Positions 3,738-52,111 of a stretch of 64,000 bases of DNA are shown piece by piece (positions within the stretch are counted from its first letter, which is position 1; the number at the start of each line of letters is the position of its first letter). The stretch covers positions 622,782 to 686,781 of the forward strand of contig CP010424.1 of NCBI GenBank assembly GCA_000830275.1. The letters run 5' to 3'. Source of the stretch: an archaeon GW2011_AR10 (GTDB lineage: Archaea > Iainarchaeota > Iainarchaeia > Iainarchaeales > GW2011-AR10). Both the position numbers and the translations under genes were made by a program. Below the pieces are notes generated by a model. That model had not been told where the DNA came from. It did not search any database and saw only the letters and a program-made list of their open reading frames with translations.

Positions 3738-5678
3738 TTGATTAAAGGGGTAAAATGCATGGCTGAACTTCAAGAAATGCAGAAGAAAGGCATTATTCTT
3801 GCAATGGTGGCAGTCATCGTTGGGATTGTAATAATTGGAGGCCCGGCATCTGCATTTTATGTTGTTGGCACGCCAGTGTTAACGCACACGCCAGGAACGA
3901 AGGATGCCAATGTAACTGTTACAATTTACAAAGAGAGATATGAGGCAATTGGAGACATCAACGCCCAAATGTTCGGAATGAGCACTGACGGTGATGTTAC
4001 AAATGCAAAGGGCTTTGGTGCTGTAGGCACTGACGTAAACTGCTTTGCAGTGCCGGATGAGTATTATGCTTACACTGAACCATTAAGCCAGACTCCTTCA
4101 GCAAACCCTTCAACGACAACTGTTAGGAGCTATGCACCGTGGCAGAAAAGCGATGGAACCTATGACTACAACATTTTGGCTTACGGCTATGTTGGAAACA
4201 CTGGAACTTTTACTGCAGGGGACCCGGGCAGCGCTGCAAGGTTTTTGACTGCTAACCCAGGTGGGCTGACAGAAGCATACTATGGTTATGGATACAATTA
4301 TGCCGGGAAGTTCAATTGCAAATGGCAGTTCACAAACCTTCCTGATGCGGTTTACTTTGGGGTGAAAGTGTGGATTAATGGGTTTTTAATGAACACTAGA
4401 GGTTTTACCACTCAAGCCGATACTGTTCAGGGAGCAACAATTGGAGATGTAAACGCAATCTTTGCAATTAAAACATTTGCAACAAGCGGTGCAACTGACA
4501 TAAACTTTGTTGACGGCTCATCAAACAAAAAAATGTATTTGTCAATTCCTGCAAACGCAGTTAACAGCGGCTCAGGAAGCACTGTAACGAAAGGCTCTGA
4601 TTTTATAACAGTAGACATTAATATTGCTAGTGCAAGAGCTAATAGTGCTGCTGACATTACAAACGTTCCAAGGTTCAGGCTTGATTCAAATGTTGCAAGC
4701 CTTACATTTGATGGAAGCAACCAAGCAACCCTTGATTTGTTCTACACGGGCTTTTTCACTGATGCTCAAATACTATCATTTGGTACAGCATTTAATATTT
4801 GGAAATTGGGAACTAATGGAGCCTGGACAAAGATTACCAATGGAAGAGACATTAATACAGATATTGACAGAGTCAGAGTAATCATTGGAAGCTTTTCTGA
4901 ATGGGGTTTTGGTCAGGACACTTCAGCAGGAAGTGGAACAGGCGGAACAACAACTACCACTGGAAGCACTGGTGGAGCCGGTGAAGGTGGCGGAGGAGGC
5001 GGTGGAGGCGGAGAGCCAAGTGCCCCATCCGGTGTTACAAGCGTTATTGTAGGGGAAAGCAGTGAAACTTACACTCCCACTCCAGAGGAGATAATAGATG
5101 TTTTAACCAAGGCAGGAGTAAGCCAGGAACAGATTGAAAAAGCGCTGGAGGCTGCGGACAGCACTTCCATTACGAAGAGCCTGCAAGTGTTCAAAGAAAC
5201 AAACAATGCAACAGGAGAGGTAACTTATAGGACAGAATTCACGATAGTTGTTAGGAACACTTCAACTGACACGATTTTGGCGAATGTAAGGGTTGTTGAA
5301 ACAATTCCGAAGAGCGTTGCACAGAGCGCAAGCGAAATAAGTAGTTCTTACACTTACAGTGTGCTGGTTGCTGACCCGGTGCTAGAGTTTGAAGCGCCAA
5401 ACGTCAGGCCAGGACAAGAAATCAAAATAACTTACTCTGTTAACAAAAAGCTGGATGAATCGGTTCTTGGAGAGTTCGAACCAACGGCTGTTATTGCTGA
5501 TGAGAAGCCAATTAGTGCAGGGGAAGAGGAAGTTACGCCGCCAACAGGGGAAGTAATTGCCCCAACTCCAGGAGAGGGAGTTGAAAAGCCAACTGACTTG
5601 CTTGGAACGCTGCTGGTAATAGTAATAGTTATTGTCGCAATTGCGGCAGCATACACTTACTTCATGAAAAAGAAGTAA
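3738..5678 (+). CDS. Cell-surface protein with Gly/Thr-rich linker and C-terminal transmembrane anchor plus KKK tail
   Basis: 646 aa; N-terminal hydrophobic signal (ILAMVAVIVGIVIIGGPASA); internal linker GSGTGGTTTTTGSTGGAGEGGGGGGGGGEPSAPSG; C-terminus LLGTLLVIVIVIVAIAAAYTYFMKKK. Possible S-layer-like or sortase-substrate protein. True start may be an internal M (MAELQ at 3759). Confidence 0.55.
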   Translation: MIKGVKCMAELQEMQKKGIILAMVAVIVGIVIIGGPASAFYVVGTPVLTHTPGTKDANVTVTIYKERYEAIGDINAQMFGMSTDGDVTNAKGFGAVGTDVNCFAVPDEYYAYTEPLSQTPSANPSTTTVRSYAPWQKSDGTYDYNILAYGYVGNTGTFTAGDPGSAARFLTANPGGLTEAYYGYGYNYAGKFNCKWQFTNLPDAVYFGVKVWINGFLMNTRGFTTQADTVQGATIGDVNAIFAIKTFATSGATDINFVDGSSNKKMYLSIPANAVNSGSGSTVTKGSDFITVDINIASARANSAADITNVPRFRLDSNVASLTFDGSNQATLDLFYTGFFTDAQILSFGTAFNIWKLGTNGAWTKITNGRDINTDIDRVRVIIGSFSEWGFGQDTSAGSGTGGTTTTTGSTGGAGEGGGGGGGGGEPSAPSGVTSVIVGESSETYTPTPEEIIDVLTKAGVSQEQIEKALEAADSTSITKSLQVFKETNNATGEVTYRTEFTIVVRNTSTDTILANVRVVETIPKSVAQSASEISSSYTYSVLVADPVLEFEAPNVRPGQEIKITYSVNKKLDESVLGEFEPTAVIADEKPISAGEEEVTPPTGEVIAPTPGEGVEKPTDLLGTLLVIVIVIVAIAAAYTYFMKKK

Positions 5679-6480: not shown

Positions 6481-6496
6481 TACGTCAATTGACGTA
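6481..6496. promoter_or_regulatory. Perfect 16-bp palindrome TACGTCAATTGACGTA upstream of the Tad-like ATPase
   Basis: Read directly from the sequence; about 185 nt upstream of the annotated TTG start at 6682. Confidence 0.3.
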
Positions 6497-6681
6497 TAAC
6501 TATTGGCGGTGTTTTTCTGGAAAAGCTGGAAAATCCTTCGGAAGCGAAGCTTAAAAGCCACGAAATTCTTGGCTGGGGCCTTTACCACTTTGACGAACCG
6601 ATTTCAAAGACACTAAGGAAGGGGAAGGAAGCCGAAATAGTTGAACGCGCTGACGGCAGCAAGCATTACATTATCAGGGCT

Positions 6682-8019
6682 TTGCCTGAGCTTTCAGTGC
6701 AGGAAGCGTGGCTTGTCAAAAACTTTCTCAGCGAGTTTGCTGAAGGAGCCTATGGCAAAGGAAATTCTGAGCCGATTGAAGTTGCACTTAAAAAATTTTG
6801 CGAGAAAAACTGGGTTGAGCTGGATGATGGGCAGCGAGAGTACTTGGTTAAAACGCTTCAATTGCTTGCCTTTGAATTCGGGTTCCTTTCAATCATCTTG
6901 GAAGACGACAACATAGAGGAAGTTGCGGTAATCGGCTTGCATAAACCGGTTTATGTTTTTGACAGAGCATTCGGCTGGATGAAAACCAATGCCTTTTATT
7001 CAAGCGAAGCAGCCGTTAAAAATGCAGCCAACAAAATGGCAAGGCAGATTGGCAGGCACTTAAGCCTCCAAAACCCAAAACTGAATGCAGTGCTGCCGAA
7101 CGGAAGCAGGCTGAATGCATGCATTGAGCCGGCAGCAATGCAGCCTGCAATCACAATAAGGAAGTTCAGGGAAAAACCTTTTACTCCAACAGAGCTTGTT
7201 GCCAACAGAACGATTTCAAGTGAAGCCATTGCTTTCCTGTGGGCGGCAATGCAGACTGACTGCTCCATGCTAGTGTGTGGCAACACTGGCAGCGGGAAAA
7301 CAAGCACACTGAACGCGCTTTTCTGTTTTGTTCCAAAAGAGGAGAGAATTATTGTAACAGAGGAAACCCCTGAAATAAACCTGCCGCACGAACACATGGT
7401 AAAGCTCGTAACTGTTCAAAACATTGGCATTGGCATGAGTGAACTCATCGAGAATACTTTAAGGATGAGGCCTGACAGGGTTGTTGTTGGTGAAATACGG
7501 AACAGGGAAGAAGTGAATGCATTCATTGACACTCTCCTTGCAGGGCAGGGAAAGGGCTGCTATGCTACTTTTCACGCCAGATCCGCGAAAGAAGCTGCGC
7601 TGAGAATGAAGAAGTTAGGAGTGATGGAAATGGATCTTGGGGCAGTTGACATTATTCTTGTTCAGAAAAGGTGGAATTCTGTCAGAGAAAAAAAGGTTTC
7701 AGCCGAAGGCCCATTTTCGCAAACCTTTTCCCAAAAGGTTTCAGCCGAAGTCAGGCGCATCACTGAAATTGTTGAGGTCAGCCATTCAGCTGAAGGGCTT
7801 GAGTTGCGCACACTGTTTGAATTTGACCACGAAAAAGGCATGCTTGTCAGAAAGAACAGGAGCTCAAAGGTGATGGAGAAAATGAAAATCACTTTCGGTT
7901 TAAATGAAAAGCAGTTGGGGAAGCTGTTGAAGCAAAGGGAGAAAAGGCTTCGCCTGCTGCAGGCAAAAGAGCCATCATTGAAGGAATTCTTCGAGGAAAT
8001 CAGCAATGAACCAGACTGA
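6682..8019 (+). CDS. Type IV filament / secretion ATPase (TadA/CpaF/VirB11 superfamily)
   Basis: Walker A CGNTGSGKTSTLNAL, Asp box IIVTEETPEI, Walker B/His box DRVVVGEIRNREE...TFHARSAKEA. The annotated start is TTG; the reading frame is open upstream back to 6493 without a canonical start, so the N-terminus is uncertain. Confidence 0.8.
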   Translation: MPELSVQEAWLVKNFLSEFAEGAYGKGNSEPIEVALKKFCEKNWVELDDGQREYLVKTLQLLAFEFGFLSIILEDDNIEEVAVIGLHKPVYVFDRAFGWMKTNAFYSSEAAVKNAANKMARQIGRHLSLQNPKLNAVLPNGSRLNACIEPAAMQPAITIRKFREKPFTPTELVANRTISSEAIAFLWAAMQTDCSMLVCGNTGSGKTSTLNALFCFVPKEERIIVTEETPEINLPHEHMVKLVTVQNIGIGMSELIENTLRMRPDRVVVGEIRNREEVNAFIDTLLAGQGKGCYATFHARSAKEAALRMKKLGVMEMDLGAVDIILVQKRWNSVREKKVSAEGPFSQTFSQKVSAEVRRITEIVEVSHSAEGLELRTLFEFDHEKGMLVRKNRSSKVMEKMKITFGLNEKQLGKLLKQREKRLRLLQAKEPSLKEFFEEISNEPD

Positions 8020-8809
8020 ATGGATTGAGAGAAAGTTGTCAAAAGACTTAATGGAAGCCGGAATGAAGGTAAATGAAAAGGAATATCTTTCAAATGCATT
8101 CAAGTTTTCTTTGATTGCAGCAATTTTTTTCTGGCTGGCTTGGAATCTTCTGTTCAATGAACTTTTTTTTGGGATTGCTGCAACTGCATTGTTCTTTCTT
8201 GCGTCTGTCTTGGTGTGGATTTACCTGCCTGAAGCAAAAAAGAGAAAGCGCGCTGCACTGATTGAAAGGGATCTGCCGTTTGCTTTAATGCAGATGAGTG
8301 TTGAGCTGAACGTAAATGTTCCCTTCGAAAAAAGCCTGGAAAGGCTCTCCAAAGGAGGCTATGGCTTGGTTTCAGGGGAGCTGGGAAAAGCAATTGGTGA
8401 GGTGAAAGAAAAAGGGGCTTCGCTCCAGGAGGCGTTTATTCATGCAAGTGAAAGGAACCACTCTCACATGTTCCGAAGGGCACTGGCTCATCTAACGCAG
8501 GTGTACGAGCAGGGAAACAGAATCAAGGGCGAGGGGCTGAGGAGCCTGGCCAGAGAAGAGCTCGCACGGCAGAGGGCTAAAAGCAAGGAATTTTCAGGCA
8601 AGTTGGTAACGTATTCCTTGATGTTTATTGCCTTGTCGGCAATAATTCCTGCCTTGTTTCAGGCATTTATTGTTGTTGGCTCCACTTTCATGGAGCTGAC
8701 GCTTTCACCGCTACAGGTGCTGCTCATTCCGGCGCTTGTTTTTCCACTGATTGATTTGGCGGTTTTGCAGCTCATAAGAAGCAAAACTCCAGAGTTCTTG
8801 AAAGGATGA
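8006..8809 (+). CDS. Type II secretion system F-domain platform protein (TadB-like half-platform)
   Basis: 267 aa; cytoplasmic T2SSF-type region (RDLPFALMQMSVELNVNVPFEKSLERLSK) flanked by transmembrane helices. Overlaps the ATPase gene by 14 bp. Confidence 0.6.
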   Translation: MNQTEWIERKLSKDLMEAGMKVNEKEYLSNAFKFSLIAAIFFWLAWNLLFNELFFGIAATALFFLASVLVWIYLPEAKKRKRAALIERDLPFALMQMSVELNVNVPFEKSLERLSKGGYGLVSGELGKAIGEVKEKGASLQEAFIHASERNHSHMFRRALAHLTQVYEQGNRIKGEGLRSLAREELARQRAKSKEFSGKLVTYSLMFIALSAIIPALFQAFIVVGSTFMELTLSPLQVLLIPALVFPLIDLAVLQLIRSKTPEFLKG

Positions 8810-8821
8810 GAGTGAAAGGAA

Positions 8822-9736
8822 ATGCTTGAGTTCTTTGAAGGCAGAGAATGGATGAAAGAATTTGAATCTGTTCTAAGGCAGAACAACTATGAAAAAGGGG
8901 TTAAGGGGTTTGTTAGGAGTGCAACAGTGCAGGGGGCAGTGCTTTTTCTTTTCACATTCAGCGCGCTACTGCTCACAGGACAAAATGAAGTATACATAAT
9001 TGTTTTTTCTTTTGCAGCTTTTCTCGCTCCAGGAACTCTGAATTACTTATTCCAGCTCTTTGTTTTCGATTTGAGGAGGAAAAAAATTGAGGAATTGGTT
9101 CCTGATTTGCTGCTGCAGGCATCAATGCTTCCAGCAGGCACATCGCTTGAAAAAGCAATAGAGCGTTTTTCAAAGGCAGACTACGGCGAACTCAGCAGGG
9201 AATTCAGGAGAGCGCATGAAAGCATATTGAGTGGTGCTTCGCCGGAAGAAGCACTGGAAAAAATGAACAATAGCAACAGGTCAAAAACACTGGAGAGAGC
9301 AGTAAACCTGATAGTGCAGGGAATAAATTCAGGGAGCGAGGCAAGCCACGTGTTCAAGGAAACCGCTGAAGACATCCTTGAAACAAACAGCATTCTCCGA
9401 GAGCGCTCCTCTTCAATGGTAGTGGAAAAATACACTCTGCTCCTAGGCGGGGGAATAATTGTGCCGTTAATTCTCGGCCTGCTGGTTGGAATGGTGCATG
9501 AATTGAACTTTAATTCGTTGGCGGAACTAGGAATTGGTCTGCCGACGGAGCAGCGCGAGGCAGTAATGCAGGCAGCACTGCTTGCAAATCAACTTTACTT
9601 GGTTGAGTATGCAATTATTGCGTCGGTTTTTGTGGCTTTCCAGGAATCTGATTCCAAGAAGGCATTGCTGTATGCTGCCGTGCTTCTGCCATTGAGCTTT
9701 ATCGCTTATCATGCGGGGCAGATGTTTGGCATTTGA
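8822..9736 (+). CDS. Type II secretion system F-domain platform protein (TadC-like half-platform)
   Basis: 304 aa; T2SSF-type region (VPDLLLQASMLPAGTSLEKAIERFSKADYGELSREFRRAHESIL) with N- and C-terminal transmembrane helices. Confidence 0.6.
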   Translation: MLEFFEGREWMKEFESVLRQNNYEKGVKGFVRSATVQGAVLFLFTFSALLLTGQNEVYIIVFSFAAFLAPGTLNYLFQLFVFDLRRKKIEELVPDLLLQASMLPAGTSLEKAIERFSKADYGELSREFRRAHESILSGASPEEALEKMNNSNRSKTLERAVNLIVQGINSGSEASHVFKETAEDILETNSILRERSSSMVVEKYTLLLGGGIIVPLILGLLVGMVHELNFNSLAELGIGLPTEQREAVMQAALLANQLYLVEYAIIASVFVAFQESDSKKALLYAAVLLPLSFIAYHAGQMFGI

Positions 9737-9750
9737 AAGCAGGACAAAAA

Positions 9751-9873
9751 ATGACGTCCTCCCCTGCCTAAAGGCAGAGGGTATCCCAACATTTAATGGA
9801 CGTCATGAACCCGTCAACGCAACACTTTGTCAAAAAGAAAACAGGTGTTTTTATTTCACTTGACAAAGTGTTG
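9751..9873 (+). other. Two adjacent long hairpins; the second (9820-9873) is copy 1 of a 54-bp conserved hairpin element
   Basis: Hairpin 1: 9-bp arms ATGACGTCC / GGACGTCAT (9751-9759 and 9798-9806). Hairpin 2: 14-bp perfect arms CAACACTTTGTCAA / TTGACAAAGTGTTG around a 26-nt T-rich loop. Second copy at 51858-51911. Confidence 0.5.
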
Positions 9874-9905
9874 AAAAGATACCGAGACCAATAACCGCGA
9901 CTTAA

Positions 9906-10193
9906 AAGCCGAGGCGCACGCCTAACACTCACACATTATACCTAAAAAAGCCGGAGGAGCTTTCTGAGATATTATCCCCAAAAAGAATAGAACTGCTCAA
10001 GTACATAATCAGCAACCGCAAAAAAAACAGAACAATAAGTGAAATTTCCAAAAAGTTAAATAGAAAGCAGGAAGCAATAAGCAGGGACGCAAATTTATTG
10101 GTAAAGCACAATTTAATCAGGAAGATCCGACAAAAGCAGATGACCTGCTTGAAGGCCATTTACGGTTCCCTGCAAATAAGGTTGACCGCCTAA
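9906..10193 (+). other. Winged-helix (ArsR/Lrp-like) regulator-like ORF with no canonical start codon
   Basis: Open frame from after TAA at 9903-9905 to TAA at 10191-10193 encodes ...EELSEILSPKRIELLKYIISNRKKNRTISEISKKLNRKQEAISRDANLLVKHNLIRKIR.... No ATG, GTG or TTG lies in frame upstream of the helix-turn-helix part. Confidence 0.35.
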
Positions 10194-12831: not shown

Positions 12832-15800
12832 CTAATTTTTTTCTCTTCGAATGTAAACAAAGACCGCAATTAATGAAACAATGAAAAGTGCTAAAACAAC
12901 AGGGTTTTCTGGAAGCGATGGAAGGTTAAGCAGGCTCTTGTCGGTTTCCCCTACCTGCAGGTTAAGCACGTTGCCTGAAGCAGTTGAAGTTACCTCGTTG
13001 TTGGGGCCAACTCTTGCAGAAATGCCTTCGCGGAAAGCCTCAATCAAAGGCAGCAGCTGGGCGTTTTCAGCATACCACAAGCCTTTCTCCGGGTCATAAT
13101 AGAATGCCCCGTTCCTTCCCTGCGCTGAAGTAAGAACCTCTGGCTTCTGCCCGTCGAAGGAAACTGTTGGAACACCGTTTTCTGCAGCAAAGTCAAGCGT
13201 GTGCTTTTTGCCGTTCTCGTCAATGAATTCAAGGCCATTTGGAGTGGCTCTTGCAGTTCCAGCAAAGTCTTGAATCTCGCCTGTTTCCTTATCTATTACC
13301 CTCAAATGGTCCTTGCATGCTCCTGTTTCATCTCTTTCCGAGCTCAGCACATACCTTTTGGTCGGGGTTTCAAATACTTGGAAGGGGCCGAATTTTTTTA
13401 AGGAAGTATTGAATGCAGCAACCTTTGCTTGGTTCGCGGGACTATTGGGGTCGCCTTCCACTTGGAAGTCAAGAGCTGGTTCCTCGCACTGGTTTTCAGG
13501 GTTAGTGGAGGAAGTCAGGTCAGTGTCAAGGCCCCTAACATCGTTTTGTTCAAGTATGCCCTGCTCGTGGTGCCTTAACCAAATAAGGTAACAGCCGTCA
13601 GGCCTTGCAACAATCATTCCATTCTTGAACTGGATTGACTTAAGCGAGCCAACTTCCGGAATCCCATCATTAGAGCTTGAGAGCGCAACATCATTGTTTG
13701 CAAGTACATTTATTGTTGAAATGTTTCCTACAGCAATTTTTCTTGGAACTCCTTCAGCGACAATCCTGTCACCTAATGGCCTGATGTTGGGGTGCGTAGT
13801 GGTTATAACGGAATTCACCAACCCAAATGTTGAGGTTAAATTGTTTCCCCCAACCAAAGGCAAACCAGTCTGCTGCATCACTCCATCCTGCAGGCACGCC
13901 CGCGCTTCAGGATGTGTTATGAATGCCTCGCCCCTTGCATTCACCTGAATTGCAACATCAGCTGTTGGAGGCAAGCAGACAGTTGTCAATGTTCTTGGAA
14001 CTTTTTTAGCTGGAATGCTTAGCTCAAGGTCATCTCCGGCCAACCTTGCTGCATCCTCGTTCTCTACAATAGGCTTTCCATCAAAGAGTATCTTGCCGTT
14101 CTCGAAATCAAAGTCAAGGCCTTTCCCTGTTGTTTTGTCTTTCACTGTTTCCTTTCCCTCTGTTTTGTATTCGCCGGAACTCATCTCGCAGCCCGGTCCA
14201 CACCAGAAATAGAACAGCTTTCTTCCCTTCAGCTGGCCTGAGCTCTGACCTTGAATGCTCAAGCGTGCCTGAACAATGTTTTTTTCCTCGGAATCATTCA
14301 CAAACTTTTTGATGTCATTTCCGATTCCTTCAACCTGCTCTTTGACCAATGAGTCTTCACTGCTGCCGCTGAATGCACCGGTTATCTGCTCGTTGAGGTT
14401 GCCAATAAAATTGGAAACTTTTTCAGTTGAAAGCTCCACGTTTCCTTCATCGTCCCTCTCCTCCATTGGAGGAACAAGGTAATGCACGAAGTAGCCTTCC
14501 TCAACATCAACGCAGTCCTGAAGCTTTGGAGCGTAAAGGGTTTGAATTGCAACAGTGCTGAATGCTCCAGGCCAGAAAAAGGTTGCGTAAGCCAAGGTTT
14601 CAATGCCGCCAAGCACTCCACCAATGCCGCCTTCTTCAGGCAGGAATGGAGCAATTTTTTTTGCTGTGGCATAACCAGGCAAAGAGAACACTGCCTGCTT
14701 GCAGGTTTTTGGTTCCCCTTCGGGCTGCACGAATTCCTGGCCCCTGTCCCTTGCCTCGAATTCTTCCTGCTCGTTGCTCCAGGCATCATGCAAATCAATT
14801 CGTTCCCCTTCAATGTCCCCAGTGCTTCCCTTCAAGTCCATGTGGTGCGCGAAAGCAATCAGGGTTTGGCCTTTCTGCAAGGCATCCTCCGAGCGCGTGT
14901 CCTCAAGAATGTAGGCATCGAAAGGCCTGCCGACAACAAAGAAGGGGTTAAAGTCCTCCAAGTTGGCTGAATTCAATGTGACAAAACAGTCAACGCATTC
15001 ATTGGGGCCAGTCAAGTAAAACGCAAGGCTTTCGGTTTCATTCCTCAGTTCCCTTCCTGAGAGCTTGTTGTAAAAGTCCGCAACAGGATTGAATTTATCG
15101 CTTACTTCATCAAGCACAAGCTTCCATGGAAGCTTGTTTGCAACCTGCACAAACAAATCGCCTTGATCAGAACCCTCATTTGCAAAGAAGTCAATGTATG
15201 CTTCAAAGTAAAGCGGCTTGTCTTGGAGCAGGAAGTCAACCTCGCTCCAAGTGTCTGGCAGCTGGTAAAGTGATAGGTCCTCAAAGCCTGCTCCTTTTTT
15301 GCTCCACCAGTAGCCAAACGGGTAAACAGTCCACTTTGCACCGCCCTTGAACGAAAAATAGCTCCTTATTATTTCGTCTTCTTCTGCCGCAAGCTTGTCA
15401 AGCCAGCTCCAGTAGCGCCTTGAAACCCAGTTTCGTTCACGGAGAGTATTAAGCATTAAGTCAGTATTCACTTTTGACCTCAAAACGTTTGAACCAACCC
15501 TTGCGTTTGTCAATGCAGATGAAAGCTCTTCCGGAGTAAGCACTTTAGAAGGCCCCCAGTTTCCTTGAACAATTGTAGGGTTGCCGCCAATCCTGTTCTG
15601 AATTAACGGAATGCTTGCATCAGTGTAATGGATGTATTCGCCCATGTCGGTTTTTACCCAAGTATTGGCATAGCCTTTGGCCGCCCTTTCAAGGTTGCTG
15701 TAACTTAAGGCCCTAAACTCTGTTGTTGTGGCAGGGTCAAAGCCATAAAGTATGAGGTTTCCAAACTCGTCAGTTTCATAGGCGCTGCGGTACTTGTTTA

Positions 15801-17661
15801 TCTCAGCCGTAAAGTTCCTCCAGTTGCCAGAGTCAACGAATTTATCCAGAATTACGCGGAAGTTCCTGTGCTCTGAGAACAAGTCAAGAACATCGCCTGT
15901 GTTCACCTGCTTTACTCCCTTGTCATACAGGCCCATATTGACATGCCTGACAATCCATTCAGGAAGGTCGGCTCCCATTTGGTCATCCGCAGTTGTGAGG
16001 AACTTTGCAAAAGAACGGCCATAATCAACAAGGGCTTTTTTCCCTTCAGGGTGCGTTAATGGGTCAATTCCTTGGTCCCTTAGTTTGTTAAAAATATTTG
16101 AGTATACTTTCTCTGACTGTTCCACTTCGTGGAGGCCGCCCCTCCATATTGTCCTCAGGTCTTTCATGACGCGGACAAACTCTGCTTTCTTTTCAAGAGT
16201 GTCAATTGATTCAAGGAATCCGCCTTTCGCCTGCTGTTTTCCCCACCAGTCAAAGAACTCCTGGGTTTTAATAATTGGGTAGCCTGTGCCATCAGAGCTG
16301 CCGATTGTCATGCTCTGCCAGAAGTCACGCCAGCCGTACTTGTCAATTTTTGACTGCATCCTTGAAACCTTAAGGTCTCCAAGGAAAGAGCCAGGAGTTT
16401 CAAATGTTGCCCTGAACCTGTCAGCGTAATCTGTGAGTTTTCCTTTCAGGCCAGGCAAGAGGCCTCTTCTCGCATTCCAGCCGAACATTTTTTTTGCTGC
16501 ATAGCCAAGGCTCGGCCCGAAATTTGTTACAACCATTTCAGCGCTCAGCCACTGGTTAAAGTATTTGTCAAACATCGAGTAAGTTGTTATAATGCAGTCG
16601 TTGCTGATGCAGTTGGTGCCGAATTCTGCGTCAAACTCCTGTGCAAGAATCGAGTTGGGAAGCAACTCTGTTTCCAGTCGAGTTGCGGTTTTAATGTGGT
16701 TGGGAAAAGAACATATGCTGTTATCCCACACCATTCCAGCTGAAGTGCATGAAGCTTCATCTCTTGGGGTTTCAATGCACTCTCCTGTTACCTTGCTGTA
16801 AAAGTTTTTTGCTCCATCAGTGCACTGCTCCTGGGAAACTTCTTTCCAGAGCTCTTCCTGTCCTTCCTCAGTGAAAACCGCTGCTGCCAGAACTTCCTGC
16901 TCTTCTGATGTGAACTCTGGCTTTTCTGTTGAGTTTTCATCAGTGAACCAGCTCTTTATTTTGTCGTATCCGCTGCCGAAAGCTTCCTTGATTGGTTTAA
17001 AATCTGCAGCAATTCCTGAACCGGAATTTCTGTAAGTGAGGTTTTTTCCTGTAAGCCAGCAGTTCTGGTCGTAGTCCTTGCATCTCCCTGTACGCAGAGA
17101 ATCATCAAGCACAAGACCGAAAGCGAAAGGCCCCTTTATGTGCCTGTTCAAGTAATTGCTTATCTCCCAAGGATTAAATTTTTTGTTTGGCAAGTCGGCT
17201 TTTGCCGTGACGTTTTCGTCCTGCTGCGATTTCAGAATGATGTTGTTTTCTTTCAGCTCATCCCTGTCATCAATCTCGTTTTCTGTTTGCTGTGGAAGAG
17301 CATCACCGCTTATCTCTTCTCCAACAAAGCCGTCTTTCAGGAGGTTTAGTATGTTGTTGCTTTCAGTTGGTGTAAGAGAACGGGACTCGCAGACATAACC
17401 CCTGTTTGGGAAAGGCGAAGGTATCGGCACTATAGGAGAAGTTGCAGGAGGAACTGCAGGTATTATTGGAGGGGGTTGTGGCACAGCATCAGGCGTCGGA
17501 TCAAGCACTGTTGCATCTGCACCCTGAAATGCGGCAGAATTTTCGTTTTCAGTTGGATTTAAAGGTTCTGGTGCCTGTTCAGCGTAATAGTCCTGCGCGT
17601 TGGCAGGATAAGTGCTAAGCAGAATTATTGCAATCAAGAAAAGGCTTGGAAGTTTCCTCAC
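12832..17661 (-). CDS. Large secreted surface protein (1,609 aa) with N-terminal signal peptide and C-terminal transmembrane anchor
   Basis: N-terminus MRKLPSLFLIAIILLSTYPANAQ; C-terminus PENPVVLALFIVSLIAVFVYIRREKN. Plus-strand ORFs inside it are treated as frame shadows. Confidence 0.6.
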   Translation of the reverse strand: MRKLPSLFLIAIILLSTYPANAQDYYAEQAPEPLNPTENENSAAFQGADATVLDPTPDAVPQPPPIIPAVPPATSPIVPIPSPFPNRGYVCESRSLTPTESNNILNLLKDGFVGEEISGDALPQQTENEIDDRDELKENNIILKSQQDENVTAKADLPNKKFNPWEISNYLNRHIKGPFAFGLVLDDSLRTGRCKDYDQNCWLTGKNLTYRNSGSGIAADFKPIKEAFGSGYDKIKSWFTDENSTEKPEFTSEEQEVLAAAVFTEEGQEELWKEVSQEQCTDGAKNFYSKVTGECIETPRDEASCTSAGMVWDNSICSFPNHIKTATRLETELLPNSILAQEFDAEFGTNCISNDCIITTYSMFDKYFNQWLSAEMVVTNFGPSLGYAAKKMFGWNARRGLLPGLKGKLTDYADRFRATFETPGSFLGDLKVSRMQSKIDKYGWRDFWQSMTIGSSDGTGYPIIKTQEFFDWWGKQQAKGGFLESIDTLEKKAEFVRVMKDLRTIWRGGLHEVEQSEKVYSNIFNKLRDQGIDPLTHPEGKKALVDYGRSFAKFLTTADDQMGADLPEWIVRHVNMGLYDKGVKQVNTGDVLDLFSEHRNFRVILDKFVDSGNWRNFTAEINKYRSAYETDEFGNLILYGFDPATTTEFRALSYSNLERAAKGYANTWVKTDMGEYIHYTDASIPLIQNRIGGNPTIVQGNWGPSKVLTPEELSSALTNARVGSNVLRSKVNTDLMLNTLRERNWVSRRYWSWLDKLAAEEDEIIRSYFSFKGGAKWTVYPFGYWWSKKGAGFEDLSLYQLPDTWSEVDFLLQDKPLYFEAYIDFFANEGSDQGDLFVQVANKLPWKLVLDEVSDKFNPVADFYNKLSGRELRNETESLAFYLTGPNECVDCFVTLNSANLEDFNPFFVVGRPFDAYILEDTRSEDALQKGQTLIAFAHHMDLKGSTGDIEGERIDLHDAWSNEQEEFEARDRGQEFVQPEGEPKTCKQAVFSLPGYATAKKIAPFLPEEGGIGGVLGGIETLAYATFFWPGAFSTVAIQTLYAPKLQDCVDVEEGYFVHYLVPPMEERDDEGNVELSTEKVSNFIGNLNEQITGAFSGSSEDSLVKEQVEGIGNDIKKFVNDSEEKNIVQARLSIQGQSSGQLKGRKLFYFWCGPGCEMSSGEYKTEGKETVKDKTTGKGLDFDFENGKILFDGKPIVENEDAARLAGDDLELSIPAKKVPRTLTTVCLPPTADVAIQVNARGEAFITHPEARACLQDGVMQQTGLPLVGGNNLTSTFGLVNSVITTTHPNIRPLGDRIVAEGVPRKIAVGNISTINVLANNDVALSSSNDGIPEVGSLKSIQFKNGMIVARPDGCYLIWLRHHEQGILEQNDVRGLDTDLTSSTNPENQCEEPALDFQVEGDPNSPANQAKVAAFNTSLKKFGPFQVFETPTKRYVLSSERDETGACKDHLRVIDKETGEIQDFAGTARATPNGLEFIDENGKKHTLDFAAENGVPTVSFDGQKPEVLTSAQGRNGAFYYDPEKGLWYAENAQLLPLIEAFREGISARVGPNNEVTSTASGNVLNLQVGETDKSLLNLPSLPENPVVLALFIVSLIAVFVYIRREKN

Positions 17662-20588: not shown

Positions 20589-21374
20589 TTACCTGCACGC
20601 TGAAGAATCAAAGTGCTCAATGCCTGCTTCAATGCAGCACCACTCAGAACTCTTAAAGTAGGGAACAGAACCTACTTCTGTCGCATCCCACAAAACCAAA
20701 TCTGCCTGCGTTTCAAATGGCCTGAAAGTTATCTCGTCCTCTGCAACCATTGTTATTTTGGCTGAAGCCTGCGCTGTGTCGCCAACCCGGATAATAAGGT
20801 CTTTCAGGCTGTTGTTGATTGTGCCAAAGTCAGCATTTTCCCCAATGCTGCACAGCAAATCAGTTCTTGGAGGGTCATCAGCAACAAAGTTTGGAAACCT
20901 CCCTGTTCCAATGTTCTCAAAGTTTGTTTTGTGGAAAAAAATGAAGATGAATTTCTGCCTCACATCCTCTTGGTCTCTTGGAACAGAAAGATAGAAAATG
21001 TAATCAAAGTTGTCTCCAAGAGGAGCCATTATTGAATTGATGTCCTGCGCTAAAATCAGCATTGTTTTCTCTGTGAGGTAGCGCTTGTCGGCATAATCTT
21101 CCTTCACATAAGCAAGCAGCTGGTCAATTTCAACTTCACTACTTAAGCCGTAAATTGAGCTGTCTGGGTTTCTTGGAGTGCTGCTGTAAAGAATTGTTTT
21201 AAGGGCATCCGTTGCAAAATCAGAATTGTAGTTCTGCACTATCTGCGCTGAAACAGTGTTGCCGTATCCATTGGAGAAAGAGAAAAGGAAAACGCTGATT
21301 GAGGTAACTATCAGGAGAAAGTAAAGAGCATCTGTTACTGCTGCTTGGCCTCTGTTTTCCTTTAAGGCATCCAT
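20589..21374 (-). CDS. Pilin-like protein with archaeal class III signal peptide
   Basis: N-terminus MDALKENRGQAAVTDALYFLLIVTSISVFLF: charged residues, Gly, then a hydrophobic helix. Confidence 0.5.
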   Translation of the reverse strand: MDALKENRGQAAVTDALYFLLIVTSISVFLFSFSNGYGNTVSAQIVQNYNSDFATDALKTILYSSTPRNPDSSIYGLSSEVEIDQLLAYVKEDYADKRYLTEKTMLILAQDINSIMAPLGDNFDYIFYLSVPRDQEDVRQKFIFIFFHKTNFENIGTGRFPNFVADDPPRTDLLCSIGENADFGTINNSLKDLIIRVGDTAQASAKITMVAEDEITFRPFETQADLVLWDATEVGSVPYFKSSEWCCIEAGIEHFDSSACR

Positions 21375-21901
21375 GTAACCACCACCAAGTGCATTGGCTT
21401 AATAACCCTGTTGTCTTCAACTGCAATCGGGTAAATCCTTGCAACAATTTCTTTGTCGGCAAAAAAACGGTAAGCAAAGCTAGGGGAAGAAGAAATGTCG
21501 CTGTTAATTGCAGGGTCAATGTTGTGGCATGAGAACTCGTTGCCTGCTTCATCCAAGAAAAAGCCCACGTTGTATAGCCTTGCATCCTGGGCATTGTATT
21601 GCAGGCTGTATTGGTCTGTGGCAGTATAATAGTTTGTTATTCCCGCGCGGAATTTAAGGTTTGGAATGCTGAGTGTACTGCACAGCGCTTTGAAGTTCTC
21701 GTAGCCACTTATATAGCTTGTGCCTTTAAGGACTTTGGCAATTTTTATCACTTTGATGTCAGAATCGAACTTGGAGTTTTTATTGTCAAAGACACCGAAA
21801 GCGAAAGTAAAGGTTGAAAAAAACATTATCAGCGCGAAGAGCAGTGGAATCAGGGAAGGCAGGTCATCTCCAATCGGCCCCAAAAAACCTTTATTCAGCA
21901 A
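21362..21901 (-). CDS. Pilus-associated protein with N-terminal transmembrane helix
   Basis: N-terminus MLNKGFLGPIGDDLPSLIPLLFALIMFF; overlaps the downstream gene by 13 bp, so it belongs to the operon. Confidence 0.4.
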   Translation of the reverse strand: MLNKGFLGPIGDDLPSLIPLLFALIMFFSTFTFAFGVFDNKNSKFDSDIKVIKIAKVLKGTSYISGYENFKALCSTLSIPNLKFRAGITNYYTATDQYSLQYNAQDARLYNVGFFLDEAGNEFSCHNIDPAINSDISSSPSFAYRFFADKEIVARIYPIAVEDNRVIKPMHLVVVTWMP

Positions 21902-22587
21902 GTGAAACCAACCCCTGGGTAAACGCTTTCACCCACGCTTGATTTTATGGCATTGCATGTCGGGCCAACGCTGCATGGAAAAATGTAGAGGGAGCTTTGC
22001 CCCCTCTTGATTTCCTTAACTAACTGAATTGAATCCATTGGAACTCTGGCCTGAGGGTCAATGTAAACAGATTCCCCTGTGTCAGTGGCCAGTTCGCGGA
22101 GTGTTCCAATTCCCCCGTACTCGTCACCCAAATAGTCTTGGCTGAAAAGGGTTACTTCTGCTTTTGTTTCAAAGGATTTTGCTGCAATTGCTTTTGGAAT
22201 GTAGGAAGGGTCATTAATTGATTTCACGAGGTCGCGCCTCGGGAAAACCGAGAAAATAACTTTCGAGATTGTTTCAGGGCCTGAGGGAAGCTCTTTCTCA
22301 AACTGCGTTACACTTATTTTCATCACATAGTAGAATTCTTGGCCGCTTACATCAAGGGAGCGCGGGAATGTATGTGAATCAGAAAAACAGTAAGCGGGGG
22401 AAGAAGCAACACTGCTTGCTTTGGTGAGAACCCTGTCAAGCAACAGCTGTGCTTCCTTCACCTTGACTATGTCGATTAAGCCGAAAGTGAAGAAGGCAAC
22501 GATTGCAAAAATTGATACCACAAGTATCAAGAGATTCATTTTGCTTAAAATGAAGCCAAGCATTGTCAAACCCTCTTGTAAACGCAA
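21895..22587 (-). CDS. Pilus-associated protein with N-terminal transmembrane helix
   Basis: N-terminus ...MNLLILVVSIFAIVAFFTFGL; overlaps neighbours on both sides. Confidence 0.4.
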   Translation of the reverse strand: MRLQEGLTMLGFILSKMNLLILVVSIFAIVAFFTFGLIDIVKVKEAQLLLDRVLTKASSVASSPAYCFSDSHTFPRSLDVSGQEFYYVMKISVTQFEKELPSGPETISKVIFSVFPRRDLVKSINDPSYIPKAIAAKSFETKAEVTLFSQDYLGDEYGGIGTLRELATDTGESVYIDPQARVPMDSIQLVKEIKRGQSSLYIFPCSVGPTCNAIKSSVGESVYPGVGFTC

Positions 22588-23111
22588 ATCCTTGGCTGCG
22601 GGGAGAACAAGTGGAACTGCTTGATTAAAGTGTACTGGCCGGGCTCAATTGCTTCGTCTTTCTTCCATTCCTTTACTTTAAATTCTGTTGGCTGGTCGTC
22701 AAAGTCGTGGCAGACTGTTGCGGAAGGAAAATCCGTTGCAGAAGAAATGTTAAGACACTTTATTGAACTGAAGTCAGGCGAGGAAAACAAAAGCAGAGTG
22801 CATTCATAGCGCAACCCGCCACAATGAAAAGAGCAAGTGGCCCGGTCATCCCTGCTGACAATCCTCAGCGAGCTATCATTCTGGTTAAAGCAGGACGGCA
22901 TATCGTATGCAACAGTTTTTTTGCCTTCGCCTTTTGCAACTGTTTCAAGCGCAGTCTTCAATTCCTCCATGTTCTGGTCAATTTTGCCTTCACACTGCGC
23001 TCTCAGCAAAGTGCTCATTGCATTGAGCCCTACAACTATCACAAAAGTCATTGTTATTACTGCAATCAGCAGCTCGAAAGGGGCTGCTTCCTGGCCTTTC
23101 TGGCTGAGCAT
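22566..23111 (-). CDS. Pilin-like protein with archaeal class III signal peptide
   Basis: MLSQKGQEAAPFELLIAVITMTFVIVVGL; start chosen at the internal M because K-G-Q sits right before the hydrophobic helix. The track ORF extends to 23162. Confidence 0.55.
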   Translation of the reverse strand: MLSQKGQEAAPFELLIAVITMTFVIVVGLNAMSTLLRAQCEGKIDQNMEELKTALETVAKGEGKKTVAYDMPSCFNQNDSSLRIVSRDDRATCSFHCGGLRYECTLLLFSSPDFSSIKCLNISSATDFPSATVCHDFDDQPTEFKVKEWKKDEAIEPGQYTLIKQFHLFSPQPRICVYKRV

Positions 23112-23220
23112 GGTAACAAGAATACTGTAAAGAGATATATAAAGATTCTCAGAATCAATCAACAGGTATTGAGGGCAAGCATTATGAGCTGTTTGTGTTA
23201 CTGTAAAAAAACGCAGTGTT

Positions 23221-23388
23221 TTACTTATTGAAATACTTGGCCTGCTGCCTGCTCCAAACCTTATTCGGAGTTTTTTTCAGCCATTCAGCGTACATGTCGA
23301 TAAATTCCATGCGCTGCTGCCTGTTTCTCCTCATTTCCTCTTTAAGCTCTTTCAAATCTTTTTTTGTAAGCTTTAGCCCTTTTCCCAT
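23221..23388 (-). CDS. Small charged protein (55 aa) inside the pilus operon, not in the ORF track
   Basis: Hand translation: MGKGLKLTKKDLKELKEEMRRNRQQRMEFIDMYAEWLKKTPNKVWSRQQAKYFNK; ATG ends at 23388, TAA at 23221-23223. Confidence 0.3.
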   Translation of the reverse strand: MGKGLKLTKKDLKELKEEMRRNRQQRMEFIDMYAEWLKKTPNKVWSRQQAKYFNK

Positions 23389-23547
23389 AAAATTTTCTCC
23401 GCCTGCTTTTCAACCCTGAAATTTTGAAAGCTCTCTTTCAAAAACAATCCTGTTTCCCTTGAATTCCAGTTCCATAAATTAATCTGCCAACAAACTTAAT
23501 TTAACCATTCTCAAGCAAAAAAAGTATCCAAGTATTTGAAGTAGTAG

Positions 23548-23706
23548 TCAGTTTATGAGCGGCTGCCTTTTAACTATTTCCTGGCTCTTCTTGAACATTG
23601 GCTTAATCAAAGCAATCAGCAAAAGCGCTGCAATAATAAAAATAATGATTAGGTAAATTGAGCTCCATTCACCCTGCGCCCTTTCACCTAATTCAGGAAA
23701 TCCCAT
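23548..23706 (-). CDS. Small hydrophobic pilin-like protein (52 aa), not in the ORF track
   Basis: Hand translation: MGFPELGERAQGEWSSIYLIIIFIIAALLLIALIKPMFKKSQEIVKRQPLIN; short charged N-terminus, Gly, then one helix, like short Flp-type pilins. Confidence 0.4.
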   Translation of the reverse strand: MGFPELGERAQGEWSSIYLIIIFIIAALLLIALIKPMFKKSQEIVKRQPLIN

Positions 23707-23752
23707 ATAGAAAAAGAATGGAAAAAGAAGTATTTAATGATTGGTGTTAGGT

Positions 23753-24301
23753 TTAACTTGCCGGAATAATGCTTACAAGGCAAATCCTTTCAGTGTTTGA
23801 GGGGTCAAATATTGCTGTTCCACCGCCACAAAAGCTGTTGTAGCCGGAAAACACTGTGTCAAGCCTTGCTTCTAGGACGGTTTCCTCAACCCTGTTCGCG
23901 TTATCGCAGAGCACGTATAGCTTCTGCTGCTGGTCAGAGTTGCCGTTGTAGCGAATCCAAGAGCCTTGAGCAACTTCCTCATAGTTAGGGTTGCTTCCTG
24001 AAACAGTGTCAGAAATTAAAACGCAAAGCTGGTGCTCTCCAAGCGAACCAGTTTTTTCTGCAATTGTCCTTGACCTCAGGCTTGTGCCGTTCTTGAATGT
24101 TACTAATCCTGTTCTTTCAGGCGTGCCCAAATTGTTGATGAGTGTCTTAATTTTTGAGGACGCTTCCTCTGTGGGGTCGCCTTGGCTTGGGGGCGCAATC
24201 TGCGTTAAAATCTGCAGCAGAATTGTGAGAATGAATACTGCAACAATTGCTGCAATCAACAGCTTGAAAACGCTGAAAGCCTGCCCTCTCTCATTCAACA
24301 T
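23753..24301 (-). CDS. Pilin-like protein with archaeal class III signal peptide
   Basis: MLNERGQAFSVFKLLIAAIVAVFILTILLQIL. Confidence 0.6.
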   Translation of the reverse strand: MLNERGQAFSVFKLLIAAIVAVFILTILLQILTQIAPPSQGDPTEEASSKIKTLINNLGTPERTGLVTFKNGTSLRSRTIAEKTGSLGEHQLCVLISDTVSGSNPNYEEVAQGSWIRYNGNSDQQQKLYVLCDNANRVEETVLEARLDTVFSGYNSFCGGGTAIFDPSNTERICLVSIIPAS

Positions 24302-24366
24302 AGCAATCGTAAATAGAAACTCTTAACCCATATTTAAAGGTTTTGCTTTAATTCGGCTATAAACAG

Positions 24367-24813
24367 CTAAGGCGTAATTGGTTTAGAGAAAGAGAACTTG
24401 CAGCAGATTTCGCAGGTTGAATCGCAAAAGGAGGCAGGGTCAAGGTTTGTTGTGCACTGCGCGTAAAAGTTTGTTTCAATGCGGTAATTTACCAGTATTC
24501 TTTGCGAGTCAACAGTGAAAGAGGAACTGCTTGGAGCAAGAATTTCAACGCATTGCCCCTCTAATCCTGTTCTTCTTGCAAGAAAATCTTTAGTATAAAC
24601 TGTGCCTTTGTCGAAGAGGAGGTTTTCAACAACAAGAATGTCATTGTTTGGCTGCTGCACCGCGTTCTCTAATCCTTCAAGAAAACGCTCTTTGCTCACG
24701 TTTATTTTGAACTCCTCAAAGGAACGGATTGCACCGAGAATTATTAATAAAATCAGCAGCGCAACTATTGCGCCAATCATCATCTTGAACGGCTCAAACT
24801 GCCCTTTCTCCAT
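24367..24813 (-). CDS. Pilin-like protein with archaeal class III signal peptide
   Basis: MEKGQFEPFKMMIGAIVALLILLIILGAI; start chosen at the internal M (track start 24831). Confidence 0.6.
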   Translation of the reverse strand: MEKGQFEPFKMMIGAIVALLILLIILGAIRSFEEFKINVSKERFLEGLENAVQQPNNDILVVENLLFDKGTVYTKDFLARRTGLEGQCVEILAPSSSSFTVDSQRILVNYRIETNFYAQCTTNLDPASFCDSTCEICCKFSFSKPITP

Positions 24814-24852
24814 ACTAAAAACATCTCCCAATTTTTTTTAGTGTAAAAAACA

Positions 24853-27210: not shown

Positions 27211-27224
27211 AAAATGGTTTCACT

Positions 27225-41691: not shown

Positions 41692-41783
41692 TTGGCTGGA
41701 GAAGGGAGCATCCTTAATATATTAGTTTTCACTTTTAATACTACTATATAATGCGTTGAATGCTTTGCGCGCGAGGCCTTTTC

Positions 41784-50288: not shown

Positions 50289-50334
50289 ATAGAGAGTTAA
50301 ATATATTAATGAAATAAACGATAATTTTCCTCTG

Positions 50335-51807: not shown

Positions 51808-51857
51808 ATTGCGACAAAAAAGGTGATGGTTGAAACAGCAGTGGAATGAATCTCAAA

Positions 51858-51911
51858 CAACACTTTGTCAAAAAGAAAATAGGTGTTTTTATTTCACTTG
51901 ACAAAGTGTTG
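51858..51911 (+). repeat. 54-bp conserved hairpin element, copy 2
   Basis: One mismatch (loop C to T) relative to 9820-9873; arms identical. Confidence 0.6.
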
Positions 51912-51925
51912 AACCACTATATGCA

Positions 51926-51999: not shown

Positions 52000-52111
52000 T
52001 GTTTGATTTTAATACTTGGCATGCAACACAGAATTGGTTTAAATAATATAGTAACTTTAATATAGATAAAACGCATTAGTTATTGGTAAAACAAAGGTTT
52101 TCCGTGGTTTC

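Follow-up and report, generated by a model that had tools for sequence, protein, structure and literature searches.

Archaeal type IV filament cores with two platform genes in place of one have been described before (Makarova 2016, PMC4858521; Denise 2019, PMC6668835). Two tadC-like genes are present in archaeal clades 1, 2 and 4B, and the ATPases of clade 1 lie outside the group composed of clade 2 and the archaellum (PMC4858521). The Epd pilus depends on EpdL plus EpdJ and EpdK, the latter two both essential, and the substrates of EppA follow a rule of Gln at position +1 (PMC4371748). The bacterial Tad pilus is thought to be derived from an archaeal Epd-like system, in a 2019 phylogeny of type IV filaments from which DPANN archaea are missing (PMC6668835). 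The pili encoded by MIA14_0170-0177 of 'Ca. Mancarchaeum acidiphilum' Mia14 (Micrarchaeota) were assigned to the group of Methanococci, Methanothermobacteria and Thermococci (Golyshina et al. 2017, PMC5498576). For archaeon GW2011_AR10 (AR10; Diapherotrites, DPANN) the supplement of the latter paper counts four genes each of arCOG01819 (CpaF-family ATPase), arCOG01811 and arCOG01812, together with two arCOG02300 EppA/PulO genes, i.e. EppA-like peptidases. According to the published arCOG assignment the TadC families arCOG01811 and arCOG01812 also hold EpdJ and EpdK of M. maripaludis.

In this work a 64-kb stretch of AR10 DNA (64,000 nucleotides, the window) was analysed around three plus-strand genes (Table 1) which very probably constitute the core engine of an archaeal type IV pilus (type IV filament) machine, of the split-platform class and vertically inherited in DPANN archaea of the Diapherotrites/Micrarchaeota type. 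The initial annotation correctly recognised that this archaeal genome contains a second type IV filament core, with a platform truly made of two single-domain genes, while the rarity that it implied for such a split does not hold. The three-gene core is real but ordinary, its arrangement being already known as common in archaea. Its discovery value is little, in that split-platform archaeal pilus cores had been described and the AR10 copies already counted in published arCOG tables.

Table 1. Features of the operon and of the other pilus cluster, in window coordinates
Feature	Position	Strand	Remarks
In-frame upstream extension	6550..6681	+	conserved N-terminus …EILGWGL…KHYIIRALPELS, without ATG, GTG or TTG
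ATPase gene	6682..8019	+	445 aa; PilB/FlaI/CpaF superfamily secretion/assembly ATPase; first canonical start TTG 6682
Walker A motif	7279..7305	+	GNTGSGKTS, aa 200-208; columns invariant in alignment A1
Asp box	7348..7377	+	IIVTEETPEI, aa 223-232; aligned to afGspE, FlaI, CpaF
Walker B motif with catalytic Glu	7468..7500	+	RPDRVVVGEIR, aa 263-273; from alignments
His box	7561..7584	+	YATFHARS, aa 294-301; from alignments
Platform N-half	8006..8809	+	267 aa; one T2SSF domain; GAGGA upstream of start
Platform C-half	8822..9736	+	304 aa; one T2SSF domain
Two stable hairpins	9751..9873	+	directly 3' of operon; MFE -48.4 kcal/mol, z = -5.5
Five candidate class III (EppA-type) prepilin ORFs	20589..24831	-	[KR][GA]/Q; other pilus cluster

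The operon and its ATPase

The three genes are organised as a translationally coupled operon. ATPase stop and N-half start overlap by 14 nt; the N-half and C-half genes share a frame and have 12 nt between them, with the sequence TGA-GAG-TGA-AAG-GAA at the junction. The hairpins that follow, for which equally good folding was obtained in 0 of 200 shuffles, are likely to be a terminator-like element, and the second of them (9820-9873) is a repeat with a further copy at 51858-51911. No TadZ/FleN/FlaH-like accessory ATPase, prepilin peptidase or pilin is encoded in the operon or adjoining it, and profile searches found no FlaH/KaiC-like or TadZ/FleN-like ATPase domain among the operon neighbours. 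Across the window the only Walker A proteins are two secretion ATPases and one giant surface protein, the sole other P-loop secretion ATPase belonging to the other pilus cluster. There is no prepilin peptidase among the window ORFs, and tRNA genes and Rfam families are likewise absent from the window. A class III signal (KKG/IIL) considered for the 646-aa protein encoded upstream was rejected; the homologue in relative L001 has an ordinary Sec-type signal and the AR10 protein a PASA/F site.

The ATPase carries a Pfam T2SSE domain (PF00437; 123 bits, 1.2e-35, cut-off 24.9) and is 100% identical to P0001 of archaeon GW2011_AR10, which starts at GTG 6697. Walker A motif, Asp box, Walker B motif and His box are all intact and represent invariant columns common to afGspE, FlaI and CpaF. 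The original description of the protein as an ATPase of the TadA/CpaF kind is loose, the best match in the PDB being GspE of A. fulgidus (afGspE, 2oap) with 170 bits, ahead of CpaF with 135 bits. The NCBIfam matches to FlaI (199 bits) and to the TadA family (179 bits) both lie under the cut-off. Micrarchaeota proteins are among the homologues, which are 49-57% identical. One subfamily of these pilus ATPases in the relatives has an N-terminal 2x[4Fe-4S] ferredoxin domain, a fusion which may merit a separate look; a literature search on Fe-S-fused pilus ATPases gave nothing relevant.

It should be noted that position 6682 is merely the first canonical start, and that homology of the ATPase runs about 40 codons further upstream, to window positions ~6550-6570. 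The frame is open from 6493, the upstream extension contains no ATG, GTG or TTG, and 113 of 119 BLASTP alignments to relatives start at residues 5-27 of the extension (window positions ~6505-6573). The true start is probably non-canonical (e.g., ATT 6565), or else the start codon has been lost. With a conserved N-terminus that has no canonical start, expression of the full-length protein is therefore not assured, and flagging this gene has a modest value of its own.

Split and fused platforms

Both platform halves contain transmembrane segments and a single Pfam T2SSF domain, detected with 39.1 bits in the N-half and 56.2 bits in the C-half (cut-off 25.2). The N-half aligns to positions 6-249 of a 555-position ArlJ model and 4-246 of the 484-position UpsF model, and the C-half to 262-457 of a 465-position ArlJ model and 299-446 of the 484-position UpsF model. 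In hhalign comparisons the N-half scored higher with euryarchaeal N-type profiles (116-135) than with C-type profiles (93-111), and the C-half higher with C-type (127-139) than with N-type profiles (60-93). By these profile alignments the two halves follow the domain order of fused archaeal platforms, the first corresponding to their N and the second to their C domain. Single-sequence hhalign and three-sequence TadB/TadC profiles gave weak results, and no pairing of either half with TadB or TadC emerged. The AF2 models have a pLDDT of 94.2 (N-half) and 91.7 (C-half), and the best folds retrieved by Foldseek (probability 0.95-1.0) were EpsF, OutF and PilC, in the case of the N-half their cytoplasmic domains. 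Each half has a single T2SSF domain, with transmembrane helices and a cytoplasmic helix bundle of the GspF/PilC kind.

The position of the AR10 halves in one frame, at such a short distance, could speak for a two-domain platform gene recently broken by a frameshift, a nonsense mutation or a sequencing error, a history to which we attach practically no credence. Two in-frame TGA stops intervene (TGA being the commonest stop of the window, in 15 of 30 genes), and the second gene is equipped with a start codon of its own, preceded by a Shine-Dalgarno-like AAGGA. The two genes are retained in the relatives L001, L003 and L004, where the ATPase, 47-56% identical to that of AR10, is followed in the same order by proteins of ~266 aa and ~305 aa, and where the operon neighbours PAC2, a 277-aa gene and a giant gene of ~1550 aa are shared. 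The overlap of the platform genes in L003 and L004, where they lie in different frames, excludes a read-through artefact; together with the two TGA stops this also led us to reject read-through or recoding that would join the same-frame halves. Near-full-length matches in word-index searches (39-54% identity), and their orthologue clusters, were single-domain sized. The recent split by frameshift that the initial annotation had named as a refutation is contradicted by relatives that keep the same three genes and neighbours.

The impression from word-index searches that the family has no fused homologues was overturned by an exhaustive HMMER search with the C-half profile, in which 39 of the best 150 representatives were colinear fused proteins of 458-599 aa, coming from Diapherotrites, Micrarchaeota and Parvarchaeota. 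The platform state therefore changes easily, and whether it is split or fused is evolutionarily labile. In Thermoplasmata, Methanomassiliicoccales, Methanosarcinales, Bathyarchaeota and others, platforms are commonly split, with the genes ordered as in AR10, and about 35 of 57 scorable euryarchaeal loci have the order ATPase, N-half, C-half. That the AR10 split is one of many later fissions or fusions and not a single ancient Epd/Tad fission, with the same function and a different history, is a possibility to be taken seriously, if one we doubt somewhat more than we believe it. Besides the fused representatives, it is favoured by the NJ platform tree, in which DPANN C-domains are monophyletic with respect to euryarchaeal ones (100%) and complete split and fused members are mixed in one clade with 100% support; under strict completeness criteria, by which possibly truncated proteins are left out, this is the only such clade with at least 90% support. 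Euryarchaeal loci with split and with fused platforms are intermingled, the ATPase tree showing at least five changes between the states, and hhalign gave scores of 434-555 between split halves and the equivalent domains of fused proteins. Against it, the AR10 orthogroup is uniformly split, its nearest complete split relatives being at a distance of 0.71-0.84 and the nearest fused one at 1.21, and Fitch reconstruction gives a split root on both NJ trees; the fused forms may just as well have arisen secondarily, by fusion of adjacent colinear genes, and support for the internal nodes of the platform tree is poor. All trees in this work are neighbour-joining trees. The presence of both states within one DPANN family is of modest value in that it bears on the scenario of a single fission in the Epd/Tad ancestor.

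Probable native origin and the bacterial Tad pilus

The order ATPase, platform, platform is that of tadA-tadB-tadC, and homologues carry the names CpaF or TadA in some databases, both of which would favour acquisition of the module from a bacterial Tad locus by lateral transfer, or else assembly contamination. We consider such an origin extremely improbable. The codon usage of the operon matches that of the window (distance 0.052 vs a null of 0.055 +/- 0.008), as does GC, which speaks against contamination, and in relatives the operon keeps its synteny with PAC2 and other archaeal genes. In the NJ tree of the ATPases, for which rooting with VirB11/TrbB is debatable, the DPANN clade (99.5%) is joined to euryarchaeal and archaellum ATPases at 85% and is united with bacterial Tad in 0 of 200 bootstraps. 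The best bacterial identity to the ATPase is only ~31-36%, and no Flp pilin, TadV peptidase, TadZ, RcpA secretin or TadD-G was found among the window ORFs. The lateral transfer entertained by the initial annotation is therefore at odds with the data. Within the same tree euryarchaeal and FlaI ATPases form a clade with 99% support, outside of which the DPANN clade lies, as does clade 1 with respect to clade 2 and the archaellum in PMC4858521.

In the unrooted ATPase tree the DPANN modules branch between the euryarchaeal/archaellum ATPases and the side of Tad plus VirB11. Given this branching position and the order tadA-tadB-tadC, the archaeal system from which bacteria received the Tad pilus might have its nearest extant relatives in these modules. 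We regard this as a long shot which, if true, would point to DPANN-like episymbionts as donors of the Tad pilus. A weaker corollary is more likely, namely that fission and fusion of the platform occurred many times, in which case the split platform would be unusable as a shared derived character of Epd and Tad.

Substrates, function and known systems

The statement that no pilin gene lies immediately next to the module was confirmed, as there is no pilin-like ORF within ~10 kb of the operon. The five ORFs of the other pilus cluster are the only +1-Gln prepilin candidates in the 64 kb, at a distance of 11-15 kb from the operon. The platform of that cluster (24853-27210) had been described as long and two-domain; it is indeed 785 aa long, but one T2SSF domain is statistically detectable and a second was not detected with any profile used, and 'two-domain' is therefore only plausible.

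In the proposed mechanism the two halves would associate in the membrane as a pseudo-two-domain platform equivalent to one PilC/FlaJ, and the hexameric ATPase would dock on the cytoplasmic bundles of both. An EppA-like peptidase encoded elsewhere would cut the class III signal peptide, after which ATP-driven movements would lift the prepilins from the membrane into the base of the filament. As pilin genes are missing from the operon itself, its substrates are most likely pilins encoded in trans, with the five +1-Gln prepilins as candidates; duplicated or orphan ATPase/TadC modules sharing pilin sets have been proposed in other archaea (PMC4858521). The same lack of pilin genes and the same proposal would also suit an accessory engine acting on the filament of the neighbouring cluster, e.g., in retraction, secretion or DNA uptake, without a pilus of its own, and PMC4371748 cites the idea that, of two platform paralogues, one serves to add pilins and the other to remove them. 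We find this role unlikely, because the module has its own complete platform, unlike the retraction ATPases (PilT), and an archaeal pilus retraction ATPase has not been identified so far (PMC4371748); no sequence feature separates assembly from accessory roles. A core engine for pilus assembly is the preferred reading of the operon.

Of the known systems, the TadA/CpaF-TadB-TadC genes of bacterial Tad/Flp (type IVc) pili have the same three-gene order and domain content as AR10, with an identical architecture at the Sulfitobacter, Ralstonia and Sinorhizobium loci. The AR10 ATPase does not group with the Tad ATPases, however, and the Tad accessory genes listed above are missing from AR10's window. 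Denise et al. (PMC6668835) report TadB to resemble the C domain and TadC the N domain, an order opposite to that of the AR10 halves. Euryarchaeal clade 2 (relatives of afGspE, PDB 2oap) provides the best solved-structure match and, in the majority of loci scored, the same layout, whereas the AR10 ATPase falls outside the clade and the halves are distantly similar (hhalign 116-139). The locus MIA14_0170-0177 of Mia14, likened to AR10's from its published description, has a CpaF-family ATPase followed by two TadC genes; it differs in its secreted pilus components, which the AR10 operon does not have. The Epd locus of Methanococcus (clade 1) differs in the order platform-platform-ATPase, where AR10 has the ATPase first. 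No FlaH/KaiC-like gene adjoins the AR10 operon and no short EppA-type (+1 Gln) pilin is encoded within ~10 kb of it, the AR10 candidates sitting in a different cluster with its own ATPase and long platform. The Epd core of M. maripaludis nevertheless consists, as in AR10, of one ATPase and two adjacent single-T2SSF platform genes; the arCOG tables list four copies each of the same two TadC families for AR10, as well as EppA-like peptidases, and candidate +1-Gln prepilins are present in its window. The Epd-type option raised by the initial annotation fits, on the basis of the published arCOG counts.

Gene order and domain structure of the module

The initial annotation had placed a secretion ATPase and two single-domain platform genes at 6682-9736, and this was borne out by three forward-strand open reading frames carrying one T2SSE and then two T2SSF domains. 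The ATPase stop and the start of the first platform gene (N-half) overlap by 14 nt, the N-half and the second platform gene (C-half) are spaced by 12 nt, and Shine-Dalgarno-like purine-rich motifs lie ahead of both platform starts. The ATPase has a Walker A (GNTGSGKTS), an Asp box, a Walker B (RPDRVVVGEIR) and a His box, in alignment columns common to Archaeoglobus GspE, Sulfolobus FlaI and Caulobacter CpaF. AlphaFold2 models of the platform proteins were all-helical and confident (pLDDT 94.2 for the N-half, 91.7 for the C-half), and the cytoplasmic bundles of both resemble EpsF, OutF and PilC (Foldseek probability 0.95-1.0).

Features of the split-platform module and of other genes and elements in the window
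Feature	Position	Strand	Basis or description
Secretion ATPase, 445 aa	6682-8019	+	ORF listing; Pfam T2SSE 123 bits (cut-off 24.9)
Platform N-half, 267 aa	8006-8809	+	ORF listing; single T2SSF, 39.1 bits (cut-off 25.2)
Platform C-half, 304 aa	8822-9736	+	ORF listing; single T2SSF, 56.2 bits (cut-off 25.2)
646-aa protein	3738-5678	+	S-layer or adhesin type
Palindrome ACGTCAATTGACGT, 14 nt	6482-6495		perfect
Hairpin, 54 nt	9820-9873; 51858-51911		perfect; CAACACTTTGTCAA, 26 nt, TTGACAAAGTGTTG
Winged-helix regulator-like frame	~9900-10170	+	…ILSPKRIELLKYIISNRKKNRTISEISKKLNRKQEAISRDANLLVKHNLIRK…
Other pilus cluster	20589-29504	-	759-aa ATPase, 785-aa platform
185-aa protein	31029-31586	+	weak exosortase/archaeosortase-like
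1016-aa protein	32926-35976	+	Amidase_3, 8e-34
Giant proteins (2842, 2669, 1609 aa)	41760-60121; 12832-17661	+; -	no Pfam matches where tested

The ATPase frame is open from 6493 with no ATG, GTG or TTG before 6682, and the database annotation starts later still (GTG 6697). Conserved residues are nevertheless encoded from about 6550, some 40 codons ahead of 6682, and match the N-termini of relatives in 113 of 119 cases. Translation probably begins at a non-canonical codon, with ATT 6565 as a candidate; alternatively the start codon was lost, or the protein lacks about 40 N-terminal residues.

In NCBIfam alignments to the ArlJ/UpsF models, the first half corresponds to the 267-aa protein and the second to the 304-aa protein. 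Profiles were made for the DPANN families and for 80 loci of euryarchaea, Bathyarchaeota and Hadarchaeota, which an alignment led by afGspE (the Archaeoglobus fulgidus GspE) had located. In split euryarchaeal loci the first gene matched the N-domain of fused platforms (hhalign 434-463) and the second the C-domain (532-555). The N-half of archaeon GW2011_AR10 (AR10) scored 116-135 against N-type and 93-111 against C-type profiles, and its C-half 127-139 against C-type and 60-93 against N-type. By these NCBIfam alignments and profile preferences, the AR10 pair is a colinear N + C split. The two DPANN halves match each other (158-165) better than their euryarchaeal counterparts, and the match of the AR10 halves to TadB versus TadC was ambiguous with three-sequence profiles.

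Origin and lability of the split

A recent frameshift in a two-domain platform gene, contamination and lateral transfer from bacteria had all been raised as origins of the module, and none of them held. The order ATPase, 265-267 aa, 304-306 aa is kept in three relatives with ATPases 47-56% identical (the middle gene of homologous locus L004 being 185 aa as called), and the platform genes of L003 and L004 overlap in different reading frames; the AR10 halves lie in one frame with two TGA codons between them, TGA being the commonest stop in the window. The conserved split, the differing frames and the two stops rule out a recent frameshift. Contamination is excluded by the synteny, with PAC2, a gene of about 277 aa and an opposite-strand gene of about 1550-1690 aa recurring among the relatives, and by GC, GC3 and codon usage indistinguishable from those of equally sized window blocks (0.052 vs 0.055 +/- 0.008). 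The same synteny and native codon usage rule out bacterial import; archaeal genes such as PAC2 adjoin the module, and bacterial CpaF proteins are only about 31-36% identical (tblastn against plasmids). Database proteins of AR10 (Candidatus Diapherotrites) match the ATPase and the C-half at 100% identity.

Word-index searches gave solely homologues of single-domain size, and the resulting picture of a family lacking fused members was overturned when HMMER was run exhaustively with the C-half profile (7432 hits, 276 at E <= 1e-30): 39 of the 150 best representatives were fused colinear proteins of 458-599 aa. These are 27-43% identical to both AR10 halves, and the named ones come from Diapherotrites, Micrarchaeota and Parvarchaeota. 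Set against euryarchaeal sequences, the C-domains of DPANN form a single clade (100%). AR10 lies at a distance of 0.71-0.84 from its nearest complete split relatives and 1.21 from the nearest fused ones, and one clade with 100% support holds both complete split and fused members. Given these distances, the mixed clade and the fused homologues, the AR10 orthogroup is stably split but the DPANN family is labile, having switched platform state more than once, with either direction possible.

Pilins, neighbouring genes and non-coding elements

As initially annotated, the surroundings of the operon contain no pilin-like ORF; the window's five prepilin candidates ([KR][GA]|Q) all belong to the other cluster, at 20589-24831. 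Neither a prepilin peptidase nor a TadZ/FleN/FlaH-like ATPase was found in the window. The ATPase of the other cluster sits on a very long branch. Its platform is indeed long, but of the two domains ascribed to it only the first T2SSF was detectable. A +1 Gln is the EppA signature (PMC4371748) and the five prepilin genes with this residue stand beside that platform, therefore Epd-style pilins (Epd, the EppA-dependent pilus of Methanococcus maripaludis) sit with the long platform and not with the split one. The most economical reading is that the ATPase/platform module uses pilins encoded in trans, an arrangement also suggested for duplicated archaeal modules elsewhere (PMC4858521).

The 646-aa protein upstream carries a signal peptide, a linker rich in Gly and Thr, a DUF11-like domain and, at its C-terminus, a membrane anchor, and may act at the surface as a partner of the pilus locus; its homologue is kept upstream of the operon in locus L001 (5561-7808), split there into 439-aa and 303-aa genes. 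The 1016-aa protein, an N-acetylmuramoyl-L-alanine amidase with PKD domains and a weak glucosaminidase match, is by its domains a predicted archaeal peptidoglycan hydrolase that may target neighbouring bacteria. The 185-aa protein adjoins the pilin cluster, and the two largest giant proteins flank one of 490 aa whose signal (KG|FTLF) is class III-like.

The palindrome, which lies within the 260 nt between the ATPase and the preceding gene and adjoins an ATATTTA TATA-like box, occurs once in the window, comparable matches arising in 11 of 100 shuffles; it is a possible operator. The two hairpin copies differ by one mismatch over 57 nt and each lies just 3' of a forward-strand gene, the C-half and the pilin-like 490-aa gene; the stretch 9737-9900 has a folding z of -5.5. 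The hairpin, absent from 91 compared loci, could serve as a terminator-like repeat or represent a small mobile element. The small winged-helix-like frame, which has no canonical start codon, lies in a 540-nt gap 3' of the operon, and because the corresponding gap in L003 and L004 is only about 140-180 nt it resembles an insertion specific to AR10 or the remnant of a gene.

Relationship to known systems

ATPase relationships were taken from a neighbour-joining tree of DPANN, euryarchaeal, archaellum and bacterial Tad ATPases (139 sequences aligned over 301 columns, 200 bootstraps, VirB11/TrbB as outgroup), limited by method and root choice. The AR10 ATPase and 16 DPANN relatives form a clade (99.5%) that never grouped with bacterial Tad ATPases (0%), but joined the euryarchaeal afGspE-like sequences and FlaI at 85%, outside their own 99% clade. 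Unrooted, the tree sets this clade between two sides, the euryarchaeal/archaellum group and Tad/VirB11, which is compatible with a deep 'clade 1-like' position. Among the 120 closest ATPase homologues, 33 (570-623 aa; examples among proteins P0003-P0118 and at L001 8001-9800) are extended at the N-terminus by a segment bearing one or two CxxCxxCxxxC motifs, identified by precomputed Pfam matches as 4Fe-4S ferredoxin domains fused ahead of the pilus ATPase; the AR10 protein has none. No description of such a fusion was found in the literature searched, and it could render pilus assembly redox-sensitive.

Among scorable euryarchaeal loci, 35 have the order ATPase, N-like, C-like and 22 an ATPase followed by a fused platform of 573-729 aa, the two states being intermixed across the ATPase tree, where at least five changes are needed. 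In many Thermoplasmata and Methanomassiliicoccales loci (L014, L023-L031, L035, L038, L047-L048, L052-L056, L058, L065, L067 and others) one split platform stands between two paralogous secretion ATPases.

The arrangement has already been described: Epd-like and Tad systems have two single-domain platform genes, ascribed to fission (Denise et al., 2019, PMC6668835), two tadC-like genes occur in clade 1, many clade 2 and clade 4B loci (Makarova et al., 2016, PMC4858521), and the DPANN archaeon Mia14 has two TadC genes alongside a CpaF-family ATPase, a set assigned to the Methanococci/Methanothermobacteria/Thermococci group (Golyshina et al., 2017, PMC5498576). The latter study credits AR10 with four copies each of arCOG01819, arCOG01811 and arCOG01812, one of arCOG01814, and two EppA-like peptidases but no FlaK. 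As arCOG01814 is the only other TadC-family arCOG looked up with AR10 members (arCOG01808 and arCOG01809 have none) and holds a single copy, these counts suggest that the window's pair is one of four arCOG01811/arCOG01812 pairs. The module is a native, conserved and ordinary system, one of several split-platform pilus cores of archaeal, probably Epd, type that this DPANN genome carries, and the platform families credited to AR10 in four copies each are those of M. maripaludis EpdJ and EpdK.
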